NCBI GenBank assembly: GCA_963730155.1
Contig: CAVSQV010000003.1
Location: forward strand, 1,123,226-1,187,225
Length of the DNA stretch: 64,000 bases
Direction of reading: 5' to 3'
Origin: an uncultured Acidobacteriota bacterium
GTDB lineage: Bacteria > Acidobacteriota > Thermoanaerobaculia > Multivoradales > JBCCEF01
Below, in pieces: positions 6,974-41,304 of this stretch (positions are counted from its first letter, which is position 1; every line of letters starts with the position of its first letter). The position numbers and the translations under genes were made by a program. Under the pieces are notes generated by a model that had not been told where the DNA came from, did no database searches, and saw nothing but the letters and a program-made list of their open reading frames with translations.

Positions 6974-8037
6974 CTACCCCTCCCAGTCCCAGAAGTAGTC
7001 GGCGTTGGTGAGCTGCTCCTCCTGGTCCTGGGCGGTCGCGGCGGCCTCGGGGTCGACCTCGCGGCGGATCACCCGGAGCTGCTCCTCGAGGTCGACGGTC
7101 TCGCGCTCCCAGTAGCCCTCGCTCGCCGAACTGCGGCCAGGTGGCAGGGAAGATCGGGTCGTGCCAGCGCCGCGCGAGCCAGGCCGCGTAGTGGATCATG
7201 CGCAGCGCCGCGCAGCGGCTCGATCAGGCGCAGGGTCGAGCGGTCGAAGAGCGCGGAAGCGCTCGTAGCCCTCGAGGAAGCGCTCGCGCTGGCGGCGCGC
7301 CCAGGCGTCGCGGCCGGGGAGCGCCAGCCAGAGGTCCTGGACCGCCGGGCCGACCGTCATGTCGTCGAAGTCGAGGACGTTGAGGACGCCGTCGCGCAGG
7401 AGGAGGTTGCCGAGGTGGAGGTCGCCGTGGATGCGGTGGGTCGCGACGCCCGTCGAGCGAGCGCGTCGAGGCGCTCGGCGACGCTCGCGCGGCGGCGTCG
7501 GTCCAGCGCGGCCAGAGCCGCGGCGGCGACCGTCCGGTGCTCGTCGAGCCAGGCGAGGTCGTCGCGGACGAAGGCGTCGGCGGTCAACGCGCAGCCGGTG
7601 CGGCGCGTCGCGCCGGGCGCCGACCGTGTGGAGGCGCCCGACCAGCATGCCGAGCCGCTCGGCGGCGGCGTCGTCGAGCTCGTCGGGGGCGCGACCGCCG
7701 CGGCGCTCGGAGAGGCGTAGCAGATGCCGTCGTCTGCTCGCTGAGCGTCGCGCCGTCGGGGAAGCGGCGGACCGGGCAGACCGGGACCTCCTCGGCCTCG
7801 AGGTCGACGCAGGAACCGGTGCTCCTCGAGGATCTGCTCCTCGCTCCAGCGCCCCGGCCGGTAGAACTTGGCGACGATCCGCGAGCGGTCGACCAGCTCG
7901 ACCTCGTAGACCCGGTTCTCGAACGAGTTGAGCGGGTAGCAGACCGGGTTGGTCTCGAGCCCGGCCGCCTCGACGGCCGCGAGCACGCGGTCCGGGGTGA
8001 GCGAGAGGAAGAGGTCGCTGTGCTCGGGGGCGGGCAT
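6974..8037 (-). pseudogene. srkA: Stress-response Ser/Thr kinase SrkA (YihE), reading frame broken many times
   Basis: SrkA-like sequence is spread over all three minus frames. Pieces include [102 protein letters not shown] and a C-terminus [10 protein letters not shown]. Length is not a multiple of 3. Confidence 0.8.
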
Positions 8038-36266: not shown

Positions 36267-37386
36267 ATGTCGATGCTGTTCATCCGCTGGACCCGCGTGC
36301 GCGAGCACGAGGTGGGCCTGGTCTTCCGGGCCGGCGTCTTCCGGCGCCTGCTCGACCCGGGCCGCCACCTGGTGGTCGACCCGCTGCTCGAGACCCGGAT
36401 CCAGAAGGTCTCGGTGCGCGAGCCCTGGCTCGACCACCCGGACCTCGAGGTGATCGTCCGCTCCGGCGCGCTCGCCGGGCGCGCCCGGGTGCTCGACCTC
36501 GGCGACCACGAGCGCGCGCTGGTCTGGATCGACGGCCGCCTGCGAGGCGGTCCGCGGCTCGGGCCTGCACGCCCTGTGGACGGTGTTCCACGAGGTGCGC
36601 GTCGAGGTGATCGACACGCGGACGGTGCGCTTCGAGCACCCGGAGCTGCCGGTGATCCTGCGGGCGACGGGCGCCGCGGTCGCACCTGCGAGACCGCCGT
36701 GGTCGCGCCGGGCTGGGTCGGCCTGCTGTTCCAGGACGGCCGGCTACGTGGCGACGCTGCGAGCCGGGCGTGCACGCGTTCTGGCGCGGCGAGGGCGACG
36801 TGCGGGTGATGCACGATCGACCTGCGCGAGCAGGCGCTCGACGTCGGCGGCCAGGAGATCATGACCGCCGACAAGGTCACCCTGCGGCTCAACGCCTGGT
36901 CACGTACCGGGTGGCCGATCCGGTGCGGCGGCGACCGAGGTCGAGGACGCACGCGCAGGCGCTCTACCGCCAGGCGCAGCTCGCGCTGCGGGCGTGGTCG
37001 GCACCCGCGAGCTCGACGCCCTGCTGCCGACAAGGACGGCGTCGCCGCGCGAGCTCGACGGCGACGCTGCGGGCGCGCGCCGAGCGGCTTCGGCCTCGAG
37101 GTGCGCGGCCGTCGGCATCCGCGACGTCATCCTGCCGGGTGAGATGAAGGAGATCCTGAACCGGGTGACCGAGGCGCGGAAGGCCGCCGAGGCCGCGCTG
37201 GTGACCCGGCGCGAGGAGACCGCGGCGATCCGCTCGCAGGCCAACACCGCCCGCATCTTCGAGTCGAACCCGACGCTGATGCGGCTGCGCGAGCTGGAGG
37301 TCCTGGAGAAGGTCGCCGAGAAGGCCAACCTCACCGTCGTCCTCGGCGACGGCGGCCTCGCCGACCGGGTGGTCAAGCTGCTGTGA
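36267..37386 (+). pseudogene. SPFH/band-7 (slipin-type) protein, reading frame broken many times
   Basis: SPFH-like sequence switches among all three plus frames. Pieces include MSMLFIRWTRVREHEVGLVFR.., FHEVRVEVIDTRTVRFEHPELPVIL, ETAVVAPGWVGLLFQDGR, MTADKVTLRLNA, VTYRVADPV and, intact from about 37110, IRDVILPGEMKEILNRVTEARKAAEAA...VVKLL. Confidence 0.8.
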
Positions 37387-38122
37387 TCTGTTTCTCTTCT
37401 GCGCCGTCCCCGACCGGGGGCGGCGTTTCTTCATTGGGCGGGGCGCCCTCCGCGGCGGGCGCCGGCGGGTGGGCGTCGAGCCAGGCCTCGACCTCCTCGG
37501 GAAGGAAGCCGAACGGGCCCGGCTTGCCCTTGTAGGCGATGCGGCCGTCGCCGCCGACGACGTAGAGCCGCTCCGGCCAGCCCGAGTAGAGGTGCATGAC
37601 GTCGTTGCCGGCGCCGTCGATCAGGAGCGGAATCCCGTAGTCGAAGCGATCGACGAAGTCGCGCGCGATGGCCAGCCGCTCCTCGAGGTTCCTGGGCTGC
37701 CGGTAGCAGACCCCCTGCTCCTCGTTGCTTTCCATCTGCCACTCGTCCTCCGGGTGCGCCTCCTTGATGTAGACGGTGCGGAAGACGGCGCGGTCGGCGT
37801 ACCGCTCGGCCATCCCTTCGAGGCGTTCGACCGAACGCCGGAAGGGGGGTCACGTGAAGCTGCCGAAGACGAGCACCAGCGCCTTGCCGTCGCGGTCCGC
37901 CAGGAGCGGAACGCCGGACGTGCCGTCGAGGGCGGTGAGCTCGGCGTCCGGAGCGGGGTCTCCGACCTGGAGCTTCCCCTCCTCGCGCTGGTCGTAGAGC
38001 AGCATGCCGATCAGGTTGCGGGGGCCGCCGACCATGTAGGTGAAGCCGGCGAGGGCGACGAGCGCGAGGACGACGACGCCGAGCGCGGTGCGTCGGAGGA
38101 TGCGGGCGGTGCGTGGGGTCAT
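37373..38122 (-). CDS. Iodothyronine-deiodinase-like thioredoxin-fold selenoprotein (in-frame UGA = Sec), N-terminal TM anchor
   Basis: ORFs 37850..38122 and 37373..37813 share one frame and are joined by a TGA plus 12 sense codons. Joined sequence: ...ALVLVFGSFT-U-PPFRRSVERLEGMAERY..YIKEAHPEDEW..PERLYVV..GPFG. This matches the deiodinase FGSxT(U/C)PPF motif. Confidence 0.8.
37814..37846 (-). promoter_or_regulatory. Candidate bacterial SECIS element
   Basis: Hairpin CCUUC-C-GGCGUUC-[GGUC]-GAACGCC-UC-GAAGG. The 7-bp upper stem starts 10 nt after the UGA. The GGUC apical loop matches the E. coli fdhF SECIS. Confidence 0.7.
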
Positions 38123-38288
38123 GGCGTCGGGCCCTCGATCGGCGGTCGGTTCGTGCGGATTCTAACGCAGACCGCGGCGCGCGAAGCTCATCCGCTCGCC
38201 GCTCCAGCTCCTGCGCCCGCACCGGCGGCCGTGCTACGCTTCAGCAGATAGCTGAGTCTCGATCGATCGGCCCTGCGGAGGTGCCCCG

Positions 38289-41200
38289 GTGAAGTCGCTC
38301 CTCTCGCGCGCGCTCCTTGTCCCCGCCGCCGTCCTTACCCTCGCCGCCGCGGTCAAGGCGCAGCCCGTCGCCTACGACATCGTCTACGTGCGCCAGCCGC
38401 GCTTCGGCGACCACGACAACACGACCTGGCCCGAGGTGTTCCATCCGGCGCGCGCTCGATCCGGGCGCCGACCTCGATGCTGCTCCATCCCGACGGCAGC
38501 GAGGAGGTGCTGGTCGCCGGCGGCAACGGCGCGGTCACCGATCCGTTCGTCTCGTTCGACGCGCAGTGGGTCTACTACGCGCTACTTCCCCGACGTGCGC
38601 GCCGGAGCCGATCAACTAGCAGCGCGACCTGCCCTACGACGGCGCCGACATCTACCGCATCCACCTCGCGACGCCGCGCAGGTCGAGCAGCTCACCTTCG
38701 GCGAGTTCACGCCGAACACCGGCGCCGGCAACTGGGACGAGTCCAACCCGCTCGACCCGCCGGCGCGGCTTCAACCGGCTCGGCTACGGCATCCTGAACC
38801 TCGGCCCGTGCCCGCTCGCCGGCGGCAAGATCGCGTTCACCAGCAACCGCAACGGCTTCGTGCCGCCGAAGGGCTTCACCAACCCGACGCTGCAGCTCTT
38901 CGTGATGGACGAGGACGGCGCGAACGTGACGCCGATCGCGCCGATGAACATCGGCAGCGCGCTCCACCCGACGCCGCTGCGCGACGGGCGCCTGATGTTC
39001 ACCTCGCTACGAGAGCCAGGGCCTGCGCGACCGGCGCCTGTGGGGCATCTGGACGATCTAGCCCGACGGCCGGCAGCTGGGAGCCGGTGGTCAGCGCGTT
39101 CCGCGAGCGCGCAGGCGTTCCACTTCATGACCCAGCTCGGCGACGGCGACCTCGTCGTCGTCGACTACTACAACCTGAACAACAACGGCTTCGGCGCGCT
39201 CTACCGCTTGCCGGCTGCAGCCGCCGCCCGGCGAGCCGCGCGTTCCACTCCGCGTTCCTCGAGCGAGAACCCGCCGATCGACCAGACGATCGGCGACGGG
39301 CTTCTCGCTACCCGTTCCGCATGCCGTTCACGCCGCGCGGCATGTACTCGATCACGCCGTTCACGCACGGCGACGACGAGGCGGCGCCGGTCGGCGCCGG
39401 CGGCGTGCGCGTCGGCAAGTTCACGCACCCGTCGGCGGCGCCGAACAACGACCTGCTCGTCGTGTGGACGCCGGGGCCGGCGAACGACCTCGACCGGCCG
39501 ACGACCGCTGCCGTACTACGACGCCGGCCTCTACCTCATCCCGGGCGGCGACGTCGGTCGACGCGCCCGCCGAGCTGGTGCTGATCAAGAACGACCCGGC
39601 CTACAACGAGGCGTGGCCGCGCGCGGTCGTGCCGTACGCGGCCGTGCACGGCGTCGCCGAGCCGGCGACGCTGCCGTGGCTGCCCGAACGACGGCACGCG
39701 TGCACGCCGAGCTGCCCGCCGGCACGCCGTACGGCCTGGTCGGCACGTCAGCAGCTTCTACAAGCGCGAGAGCTTCCCCGGCTGCGTGCACGCCGTGGGC
39801 CGACACCTTCGACGGGCTCGACGCCTTCAACACCTGCGAGAACGGCCAGAGCAGCAACTGGGACACGCAGGGCGCCGACGCCGGCAAGTACGCCGAACGC
39901 CGACATCTGGGCGGTGCGCATCGCTCGCGATGGAGCCGAACACGCACCGCAGCTACGGCCCGAACGAGCGGCGCGGCAGCTCTTCGCGAGCCACGCGAAC
40001 GAGCGCCTGCGCATCCTCGGCGAGATCCCGCTGCGCAAGCTCGACGGCCGGCGGCAGCCCGATCCTCGACCCCGAGGGCAATCCCGACACCAGCTTCCTG
40101 GCGAAGATCCCGGCCGACACGCCGTTCACGTTCCAGACGCTCGACCGCAACGGCATGGTGCTCAACATGGCGCAGACCTGGCACCAGGTGCGGCCGGGCG
40201 AGGTGCGCGACGACTGCGGCGGCTGCCACGCGCACAGCCAGCAGCCGCTCGCCTTCGAGCCGACCGCCGCCGGCGCAGCCCGGCTACCCGGTCGCCGACC
40301 TCGTCGCAGGCGACGCCGCTGCTCACGCACGACGCCGGCGGCCAGCCCGACGCTCGCGGCGGTCGAGCGCGCCGCGTCGTCGACGTCGAGTTCTACCGCG
40401 ACATCCGGCCGATCCTGCAGCGCAGCTGCGTCGCGCCTGCCACACCAGTCGGCCCGACGCCGCCGCGGCAACCTCGTGCTCGACGACCTCGCGCGTCTAC
40501 GGCGGCCTGCCCGGCGACTACACGCGCCTCGCGCGACGACGACCGAGGCGCAGTGGGGCCATCCGCCGGTGATCGGCAACGGCACCTGGCGGCAGACCAA
40601 CGCGAGCCGCTACGTGCGCGCGTTCCAGAGCCGGCGCAGCCTGCTCGTCTGGAAGATCTTCGGCCAGCGCCTCGACGGCTGGACCAACGCCGACCATCCG
40701 ACCGAGATCGGTGCCCGGCAACGCCGAGCACGCTGCCGCCCGGCGCCGACGCCGAACGAAGCCGACCTCGACTACACCGGCACGATCATGCCGCCGCCCG
40801 GCAGCGGCTGCCGCTGACCATCGACGAGAAGATGACGATCGCGCGCTGGATCGACCTCGGCTGCCCGATCGACACCGCGCGACGTCGGCAGCCACGGCTA
40901 CGGCTGGTTCCTCGACGACCTGCAGGCCGACGCTCGCACGTCAGCGTCGCCGCGCCCCGGCTTCAACCCCGACCCGGTGCTCGCGCTCCGCGTCGGCGTC
41001 GCCGACGCGCAACTCCGGCATCGACCTCGGGTCGCTCTCGGTCACCGCCGACTTCCCGGTCGCGGGCCGCCCGCCCGGCGCCGAGCTCGCCGACCTCGCG
41101 GTCGAGCAGGCGCCGGGGGTCTACGCGATCCTGCTCGCGCAGCCGCTGCCCGAGCTGACCGCCGCCACCCTCTCTGCCGAGGTCGCCGATCACCAGGGCA

Positions 41201-41304
41201 ACGTGACCCGGGTGGCGCGGCGCTTCTCGACCGTCGAGGCGCTGATCTTTGCCGACGGGTTCATAAGCGGCGACACTACGGCGTGGTCGTCGACCACGCC
41301 GTAG
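38289..41304 (+). pseudogene. Large secreted beta-propeller (PD40-like) protein with CxxCH haem-c motifs (tentatively 'HzsA-related' type), reading frame broken many times
   Basis: Signal peptide MKSLLSRALLVPAAVLTLAAAVKAQ. Protein-like segments alternate among all three frames (YDIVYVRQPRFGD, LLHPDGSEEVLVAGGNGAVTDPFVSFDAQWVYYA, GFTNPTLQLFVMDEDGANVTPIAPMNIGSALHPTPLRDGRLMFTS, AFHFMTQLGDGDLVVVDYYNLNNNGFGALYRLP, DDCGGCHAHS). Intact C-terminus ...FADGFISGDTTAWSSTTP. Confidence 0.7.

Follow-up and report, generated by a model that had tools for sequence, protein, structure and literature searches.

Does an in-frame TGA codon between two open reading frames (ORFs) on the minus strand mark the end of one gene, a defect in the assembly or the site of a selenocysteine (Sec) residue? 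This question is raised by a stretch of 64,000 nucleotides from an uncultured bacterium of a soil lineage of Acidobacteriota, class Thermoanaerobaculia (positions 1,123,226 to 1,187,225 of contig CAVSQV010000003.1, NCBI GenBank assembly GCA_963730155.1), which was analysed at its full length and is referred to here as the window; all coordinates are those of the window unless a locus identifier precedes them. The codon in question, TGA 37852-37850, interrupts a gene whose product resembles the iodothyronine deiodinases. We conclude that this deiodinase-like gene, prone as it is to being miscalled, is real, and that it very probably specifies a membrane-anchored enzyme with a UGA-encoded Sec at the active site.

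The reading frame across the TGA codon

Direct reading of the minus strand revealed the ORFs 38122..37850 (90 codons) and 37813..37373 (146 codons) to share a single common frame, the sole break between them being TGA 37852-37850. Between this codon and the next ATG lie 12 sense codons, PPFRRSVERLEG. The initial annotation had described just such an arrangement of two ORFs in one frame, split by a TGA and 12 sense codons, and in this respect it proved accurate. The fused translation starts with MTPRTARILRRTALGVVVLALVALAGFTYMV...KALVLVFGSFT, continues after the TGA with PPFRRSVERLEGMAERY...YIKEAHPEDEWQM...GVCYRQP...GWPERLYVVGGDGRIAYKGKPGPFGF..., and contains KALVLVFGSFT and PPFRRSVERL on the two sides of the TGA, followed by the stretches YIKEAHPEDEW, PERLYVVGGDG and GPFG. 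The GC content at third codon positions (GC3) amounted to 0.95 before the TGA and to 0.93 after it.

Both strands of the 64-kb window were scanned for TGA codons flanked on each side by 60 stop-free codons and by a coding-like signature of GC3 and of GC content at second codon positions (GC2). The scan returned TGA 37852-37850 and, apart from it, only one weak and unconvincing candidate at 7196-7198. At that second site (7196..7198, minus strand), the flanking translation resembles an off-frame or frameshift artefact and not a selenoprotein.

TGA was found to be the terminator of 25 of the 33 coding-like segments in the window, including the deiodinase-like gene itself (37375-37373), by which a genome-wide reassignment of UGA is ruled out. 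Since UGA is a true stop in the same gene and in most of its neighbours, its recoding at the internal position depends on local context. The Logan assembly of run ERR12035939, which is independent of the GenBank assembly, contains an identical 146-aa product, a 90-aa ORF upstream of it and the same 36-nt gap between the two.

Conservation of the TGA codon among homologues

A protein search over 5.8 billion proteins yielded 127 homologues, and the following class counts refer to the 120 matches listed. Shortened calls of about 136-160 residues, with a start on or close to the Met that follows the TGA, account for 78 of them; about 25 are full length and carry FGSFT-C-PPFRR, and in 4 entries the Sec codon is represented by Trp (FGSFT-W-PPFRR). 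The database sequence of P0015, the one Trp entry that was checked, was not reproduced under translation table 11, pointing to an alternative-code call in which TGA was taken as Trp. The prediction that standard gene callers would split or truncate this gene is borne out by the 78 shortened entries and the 4 entries with Trp.

For the comparison at the nucleotide level, 89 loci were assembled, consisting of the window, 8 metagenome contigs and the best 80 GTDB species representatives. Most of the latter are metagenome-assembled genomes (MAGs) that bear the label Thermoanaerobaculia or Acidobacteriota, several others belong to Planctomycetota, and the closest of them is an uncultured Thermoanaerobaculia MAG with 82% identity. 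A TGA occupies the Sec codon in 89 of 89 loci, with the protein sequence being conserved on both flanks, and the continuous frame across the TGA is also kept in 8 related contigs. The 12 codons of the gap encode the most conserved peptide of the whole family. The gene occurs very frequently in MAGs of Thermoanaerobaculia and Planctomycetota, nearly always with a faulty annotation.

These data bear on the possibility that the TGA is a nonsense mutation in a pseudogene or a miscalled Cys codon (TGC or TGT). The closest Cys form, with TGC, is one base away from TGA, and both genes flanking the deiodinase-like gene contain several frameshifts, indicating poor assembly quality. The errors in the flanking genes are, however, indels and not substitutions. 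Moreover, an error would have to account for a TGA that recurs in all loci, in independent assemblies and in many species, for a protein that is conserved and a GC3 that exceeds 0.9 on both sides of the codon, and for the same pair of 90-aa and 146-aa ORFs in the independent Logan assembly. We regard an error of either kind as very improbable.

Equally hard to sustain is an interpretation as two genes, one for a 90-residue membrane peptide and the other for a 146-residue protein starting from Met104. Most database entries have been called in this way, and an ATG is indeed available 12 codons past the TGA. The 146-residue product would, however, be devoid of the first beta-strands and of the active-site motif of the thioredoxin fold, and the Cys-form homologues are continuous single proteins. 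The 12 gap codons are highly conserved, and among the relatives sampled the Met start is itself not conserved, the Met being located 3 codons earlier in locus L003 and the aligned residue being Ile in locus L008.

Protein family, fold and active-site residues

Profile and PDB searches were carried out with the 249-residue product in which U had been replaced by C. The Pfam family T4_deiodinase (PF00837) was matched with 118.6 bits at a cut-off of 27 (E=3.5e-34), residues 46-216 corresponding to positions 68-234 of the 237 in the profile, which supports the family assignment made in the initial annotation. AhpC-TSA (24.2 bits, cut-off 26), Redoxin (19.1 bits, cut-off 26.6) and Thioredoxin_8 all stayed under their gathering cut-offs. 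The top sequence matches in the PDB were the catalytic core of mouse Dio3 (4TR3, E=5.5e-23) and Dio2 (9H48, E=1.4e-18).

In these alignments the TGA coincides with Sec170 of Dio3 (a Cys in the crystallised protein); the product reads FGSFT-U-PPF where Dio3 reads FGSCT-C(U170)-PPF and Dio2 FGSAT-C-PPF. The TGA had been proposed to stand at the catalytic Sec or Cys of the motif FGSxT[U/C]PPF, and it aligns with precisely this site of both mouse enzymes. Among the bacterial homologues, the full-length forms carry Cys at the position of U.

The fold was compared on the AlphaFold model of P0002, the full-length Cys homologue nearest to the window protein (60% identity); this model has a predicted local distance difference test score (pLDDT) of 92.2. 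The best matches of this model were Dio3 and Dio2, with template modelling (TM) scores of 0.80 and 0.82, root-mean-square deviations (rmsd) of 1.9-2.5 Å and E-values of about 1e-14. ResA/TlpA-type thioredoxins and 1-Cys peroxiredoxins formed a second tier at about 1e-8, approximately 1e6-fold worse (Foldseek). Both the thioredoxin fold and the deiodinase-specific insertion are present in the model, which is that of the homologue and not of the window protein.

The N-terminal helix of the window protein is preceded by four Arg residues (R4, R7, R10 and R11), and in the P0002 model an N-terminal helix is found at residues 2-24. Following the positive-inside rule, the catalytic domain is probably located outside the cytoplasm.

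Residue roles for the comparison with Dio3 were taken from PMC11592359. Kept in the window protein are Ser167 (Ser88), Thr169 (Thr90), Sec170 (U91), Tyr197 (Tyr118), Glu200 (Glu121), His202 (His123) and Trp207 (Trp128). Replaced are His219 by the nearly invariant Pro143, the gate residue Phe258 by the invariant Pro183, and Arg275 of the carboxylate clamp by Pro201. Taking the relay residues together with Trp207, 6 of 7 Dio3 positions are retained, the exception being His219, with Pro143 in its place. As judged from this alignment, the predicted catalytic centre is deiodinase-like and the thyronine-recognition elements are not. The replacement of Arg275, Phe258 and His219 by conserved prolines implies that the substrate is not thyroid hormone; the absence of the thyronine-binding residues (Arg275 clamp, Phe258 gate) counts against thyroid-hormone-type substrates, not against membership in the family.

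A further residue, Cys139, is found in a V/I-C-Y motif. It is present in 89 of 89 TGA loci and in 74 of the 78 shortened Sec-type database entries. Among the approximately 25 Cys-type homologues it occurs in 2, one of them being P0002 (locus L091), and V, I or L stands in its place in nearly all the others. Cys139, which would lie near Sec91, may be linked to Sec either as its resolving Cys or simply as a marker of the clade.

The hairpin downstream of the UGA

RNA folding revealed an upper stem of 7 bp, GGCGUUC/GAACGCC, which starts 10 nt past the UGA and encloses the loop GGUC. It is preceded by a lower stem of 6 bp, CCCUUC/GAAGGG (37846-37841 with 37819-37814), and one bulged C. The hairpin geometry given in the initial annotation, i.e., a 7-bp stem, 10-nt spacing, a GGUC loop and a span of 37814..37846, was reproduced. 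The 6-bp lower stem, which had been counted as an extension of the element, exists in the window, though it is not conserved, its pairs being formed in 12-88% of the aligned sequences.

For the window alone, folding of 81 nt gave a z-score of -1.13, which is not unusual for a sequence of 74% GC. When the same peptide was recoded with the codon usage of the family, an equal or better energy was obtained in 12% of the trials (p=0.12). As the hairpin of this single sequence is not significant, comparative evidence was relied on. Scanning the whole window against Rfam at gathering thresholds and the region 37700-37950 permissively (E up to 10) gave no match to a selenocysteine insertion sequence (SECIS), the only hit being a chance match to a microRNA; a covariance model thus lent no support to the proposed element. 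The SECIS models of Rfam are eukaryotic, plus a few narrow bacterial types, and the missing match therefore says little.

The hairpin alignment comprised 83-84 distinct sequences, and the GGUC loop was found in 80 of these. The five inner pairs of the upper helix are paired in 96-99% of the sequences, the sixth pair in 78% and the seventh, outermost pair in 34%. Conservation thus covers a helix of 6 bp, beginning 11 nt after the UGA, and a 4-nt loop, the lower stem being lineage-specific. The covariation score was 0.142, compared with 0.074±0.006 for shuffled alignments, and 0 of 500 shuffles matched the observed value. Of all cells in the paired columns, 71% were paired as observed, versus 36-54% when the 3' partners were slid by 1-3 columns.

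Two-sided changes were found at three pairs of the upper helix. Most informative is the contact between the wobble positions of the second Arg codon and the Glu/Asp codon, for which C-G was counted in 69 sequences, G-C in 9 (CGG with GAC), U-A in 2 (CGU with GAA, the clade of the window) and U-G in 1, and no pair in 3. Amino acid replacements also occur in pairs, Ser/Glu being changed to Ala/Ala (UCG/GAG to GCG/GCG), and a Glu-to-Asp change being accompanied by CGC to CGG. The codons in the loop are frozen, with UCG used for Ser in 77 of 78 cases (0.10 bits) and GUC for Val in 83 of 85 (0.18 bits), whereas other Val columns of the same alignment have 0.74-1.30 bits.

Three distant Cys forms (TGC) have a different peptide (RRNTSD and similar) and no hairpin, the minimum free energy of the 22-nt window being -0.4 to -7.5 kcal/mol in these forms versus a mean of -11.4±2.0 in the Sec forms. 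In locus L008, the peptide also differs (RRQIGD); an 8-bp hairpin with a loop starting with GG is nevertheless formed, 4 nt further downstream. The closest Cys form (TGC; L091:29-664) has kept both the RRSVER peptide and a perfect hairpin capped by GGUC. These features suggest that L091 switched from Sec to Cys only recently and that its hairpin is a SECIS relic.

Against this background, the hairpin could be regarded as a by-product of the conserved RRSVER peptide written in GC-rich codons, the true recoding signal lying elsewhere or not being needed. The 12% of recoded peptides that were equally stable and the missing Rfam match are compatible with such a view, and a C-G at the wobble position is what would be expected from codon bias alone. 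Neither the peptide nor codon bias accounts, however, for synonymous sites in the loop that are frozen far beyond those in the other codons of the gene, nor for amino acid replacements that come in pairs. Further, L008 retains a hairpin with another peptide, and peptide and hairpin are both lacking from the distant Cys forms. We therefore consider a mere by-product improbable and retain the hairpin as a candidate SECIS element. In agreement with the description of bacterial SECIS elements in PMC1088965, a stem-loop of this type with a small, G-containing apical loop was found right after the UGA.

Selenocysteine machinery and weighing of the evidence

Several results weigh against the decoding of codon 91 as Sec. 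Besides the inconspicuous folding of the single sequence, the p value of the recoding trials and the lack of an Rfam match reported above, many of the compensatory changes in the hairpin may trace to few events in related lineages. Searches of the window and of about 1.4 Mb of the relatives' flanks (tblastn with E. coli SelA, SelB and SelD; ARAGORN) did not turn up selA, selB, selD or tRNA-Sec. Clustering of the ORFs within 4 kb on each side of about 83 loci did not reveal a general or operon partner. Finally, the assembly is error-prone, as evident from the frameshifts in both flanking genes.

With regard to the machinery, ARAGORN and Rfam detected only a tRNA-Ile and no tRNA-Sec in the 64-kb window. 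A 27% match to SelB in locus L070 was rejected and taken as another translational GTPase. The Sec trait has been recorded in Acidobacteria (PMC1794560); a literature search for Thermoanaerobaculia and selenocysteine found no paper linking the two.

With regard to the assembly, the caution that the gene lies between indel-dense blocks was justified, both neighbours aligning to their orthologues only via several frame switches. Locus L009, the closest MAG, served as the reference for intact neighbour orthologues. Its orthologue of the Band_7 gene (36282..37386, plus strand) is matched in frames 3, 2 and 1, and that of the HZS_alpha-like gene (38277..41301, plus strand) in frames 3, 1, 2, 3 and 1. 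The 750-nt selenoprotein gene between them is itself intact. As the source contig exceeds 1 Mb, the flanking frameshifts are probably long-read indel errors and not signs of pseudogenes.

Readthrough of the UGA by means other than SelB was weighed as well. A tRNA-Cys(UCA) mimic, an acidobacterial allo-tRNA acting as opal suppressor, or near-cognate decoding by Trp or Cys tRNAs would place Cys, Ser or Trp at residue 91. Unusual suppressor-type tRNAs have been reported for Acidobacteria, and tRNA-Cys(UCA) of the SelC* type for other phyla (PMC5389517); the lack of Sec machinery in the window and in the relatives' flanks examined, as well as the Trp placed at the codon by some pipelines, would be in line with such decoding. 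The phyla from which SelC* has been reported are, however, Firmicutes, Thermodesulfobacteria, Nitrospirae and Proteobacteria, Acidobacteria not being among them (PMC5389517), and TGA is the predominant true stop. A suppressor would also leave unexplained a conserved hairpin having the loop sequence and the spacing of a SelB-binding SECIS, and the site is that of the family's catalytic Sec, where Trp as a nucleophile is implausible. Suppression of this kind is thus an improbable explanation, and Sec remains the preferred identity of residue 91.

In locus L008, a glutaredoxin gene (L008:101-370) is situated directly upstream of the Sec-form gene. It contains an in-frame TGA (L008:173-175) in place of the first Cys of the CxxC motif (G-U-V-F-C), and a strong hairpin follows just downstream of this TGA. 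From its sequence, the L008 organism appears to have two or more adjacent selenoprotein genes, and the glutaredoxin is a possible reductant partner of the deiodinase-like protein.

Feature coordinates and genomic neighbourhood

The features of the gene are compiled in Table 1.

Table 1. Positions of the deiodinase-like gene, its protein features and its hairpin in the window.
Feature	Position	Strand	Remarks
Full deiodinase-like selenoprotein gene	37373..38122	-	249 codons; ATG 38122-38120; Sec codon 91; terminal TGA 37375-37373
In-frame UGA interpreted as the Sec codon of residue 91 (FGSFT-U-PPF)	37850..37852	-	TGA in 89/89 loci; Cys in full-length homologues; aligns with Dio3 Sec170 and the equivalent Dio2 residue
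N-terminal transmembrane/signal-anchor helix, residues 13-31	38030..38086	-	Top 19-residue Kyte-Doolittle window from residue 13, mean 2.38
Thioredoxin-fold deiodinase catalytic domain, residues 46-216	37475..37987	-	Pfam; Dio3/Dio2 alignment; P0002 model
E121-A122-H123, corresponding to Glu200 and His202 of the Dio3 proton relay	37754..37762	-	Alignment; invariant in homologues
Cys139 (V-C-Y motif) in the deiodinase-specific insertion loop bordering the active site; candidate resolving Cys for a selenenylsulfide	37706..37708	-	
Upper SECIS-like stem-loop GGCGUUC-GGUC-GAACGCC	37822..37839	-	Family-wide core is the 6-bp helix 37838..37823; GGUC loop 37832..37829
Whole hairpin including lower stem	37814..37846	-	Lower stem only in the window and closest relatives

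In the window, the gene is accompanied by an OEP/ABC-transporter pair, the tRNA-Ile, the convergent Band_7 gene and the divergent HZS_alpha-like gene. The selenoprotein gene and the Band_7 gene overlap by 14 nt (37373-37386). A promoter scan upstream of the selenoprotein gene did not find a sigma-70-like site. A terminator-like stem-loop at 37401..37426 (plus strand), consisting of 11 pairs followed by TTCTTCATTG, was the sole site of its kind and belongs to the convergent Band_7 gene; it falls inside the coding sequence of the selenoprotein gene, near its 3' end.

The clusters obtained from the neighbourhood comparison consisted of shadow ORFs, abundant paralogues (Ser/Thr kinases with a beta-propeller and SLH-domain proteins) and synteny among close relatives. 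At a distance of 0.2-5 kb upstream of the selenoprotein gene, the closest relatives have a gene for a truncated haemoglobin (Bac_globin; L001:3089-3556, L009:2716-3183 and L002:3-128); tblastn detected no copy of it in the window.

Two loci with Cys forms have neighbours of their own. In L094, the Cys-form gene (L094:3001-3750) follows 10 nt after a gene on the same strand for a 514-aa PAP2 protein (L094:1446-2990) with a weak match to a vanadium-chloroperoxidase domain (VCPO_2nd). This neighbour could link the family to halogen metabolism. As family-wide evidence, the haloperoxidase lead was dropped because tblastn found the PAP2/VCPO-like gene in no other locus examined. In locus L092 (L092:1622-2827), which derives from an Acidobacteria MAG, a Cys-form homologue adjoins two CMD/AhpD-like genes. 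The CMD/AhpD-like family includes known selenoproteins. Such neighbours are a hint that the Cys-form clade may operate in a context of peroxides or redox reactions.

Proposed mechanism and substrate

In the mechanism we propose, the UGA at codon 91 would be decoded as Sec in a 249-residue, N-terminally anchored enzyme of the deiodinase family. SelB in complex with Sec-tRNA(Sec) would bind the GGUC hairpin and deliver Sec to the UGA against release factor 2. Given its position in S-x-T-U-P-P-F and the presence of the relay residues Ser88, Thr90, Tyr118, Glu121, His123 and Trp128, Sec91 is expected to act as a nucleophilic selenolate, as in the deiodinase half-reaction (PMC11592359). The selenolate would abstract an electrophilic atom, with halogenated aromatic compounds (halogen) or peroxides (oxygen) as the donors. 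In the next step, Cys139 would resolve the oxidised selenium under formation of a selenenylsulfide, and the Se-S bond would be re-reduced by a thiol partner, e.g., glutaredoxin or thioredoxin.

As to the class of substrate, only a rough apportioning was made. Peroxides or other redox substrates head it as a tentative choice, halogenated aromatic compounds come next as a possible one, and a substrate of some other class is the least likely of the three.

A more far-reaching proposal, which we put forward as speculative and rather unlikely, is that the Thermoanaerobaculia/Planctomycetota clade represents a distinct, undescribed subfamily, defined by T-U-P-P-F, an obligatory Sec together with Cys139 and an extracytoplasmic domain, which would carry out Se-dependent reductive dehalogenation of natural organohalogens (iodo-, bromo- and chlorophenolics) in soils and sediments. 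If true, this would be the closest bacterial counterpart, and possibly the evolutionary source, of animal deiodinase chemistry, hidden from surveys by mis-annotation.

With correct gene calls, the selenoproteomes of Thermoanaerobaculia and Planctomycetota would gain a widespread member, and these abundant soil lineages would be recognised as Sec users. The loop and the spacing being like those of fdhF, the gene of this clade might be expressible in E. coli, which would offer an entry point to the function of the bacterial family, unsolved for two decades. The hypotheses that can be tested in this way are a redox pair of Sec91 and Cys139, glutaredoxin as the reductant, and halogenated aromatics or peroxides as substrates. 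The knowledge of recoding is left unchanged and no new kind of system is added; the value of the locus lies in the correction of annotation and in a testable route to function.

Comparison with known systems

Bacterial deiodinase-like proteins of PF00837, in Sec and Cys forms and with bacterial SECIS elements, were described from the Sargasso Sea by Zhang, Fomenko and Gladyshev in 2005 (PMC1088965), who suggested that the function of the family is probably redox and unrelated to thyroid hormone (PMC1088965). Two reviews, from 2022 and 2026, list the deiodinase-like family and tabulate UxxC as its redox motif. When functional studies of the bacterial homologues were sought in the literature, the flavin-dependent iodotyrosine deiodinases, which are unrelated, were all that came up.

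The locus shares with the published prokaryotic family the PF00837 domain, the UGA at the active site, the Cys homologues and a SECIS hairpin with a small, G-containing apical loop. Compared by description, the two differ in their motif, which is UxxC in the review tables and U-P-P-F, without a Cys at +3, in 89 of 89 loci here. This clade instead combines U-P-P-F with the conserved, distal Cys139. In addition, the published members are marine, whereas those of the present clade come from soil-type Thermoanaerobaculia and Planctomycetota MAGs.

The likeness to the animal deiodinases Dio1, Dio2 and Dio3 (4TR3, 9H48) extends to an identical active-site motif, FGS-x-T-U-P-P-F, the relay Ser, Thr, Tyr, Glu, His and Trp, a single N-terminal membrane helix and the same fold with its insertion (P0002 model versus Dio3: TM score 0.80, rmsd 1.9 Å, 34% identity). 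In contrast, the SECIS of the animal enzymes is a kink-turn element in the 3' untranslated region, and that of the bacterial gene a hairpin within the coding sequence. With Pro143, Pro183 and Pro201 standing where Dio3 has His219, Phe258 and Arg275, the thyronine-binding clamp is absent, and Cys239 of Dio3 is not conserved, Cys139 being conserved instead.

Peroxiredoxins and oxidoreductases of the TlpA/ResA type have in common with the window protein the thioredoxin fold, an N-terminal anchor, a single nucleophilic Cys or Sec and possibly a distal resolving Cys. They are set apart by the lack of CxxC in the window protein, by AhpC-TSA and Redoxin scores below the cut-offs and by Foldseek E-values about 1e6-fold worse than those of the deiodinases.

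The resemblance of the hairpin to the E. coli fdhF SECIS (UGA codon 140), on which the initial annotation had remarked, was upheld by direct comparison with the real fdhF sequence. Both elements are located within the coding sequence; they share the loop GGUC, and in each the mini-helix begins 11 nt past the UGA. In fdhF, the 5' arm contains a bulged U and the loop follows 18 nt after the UGA, whereas a perfect helix of 6-7 bp and a loop at 17 nt are found here. The lower stem of fdhF is unrelated in sequence to that of the window, which is itself not conserved.

Seen against these systems, the protein family and the kind of element have been known from bacteria since 2005. The new points are minor and consist of the animal-type T-U-P-P-F motif, the distal Cys that is linked to Sec and the extent of the mis-annotation.

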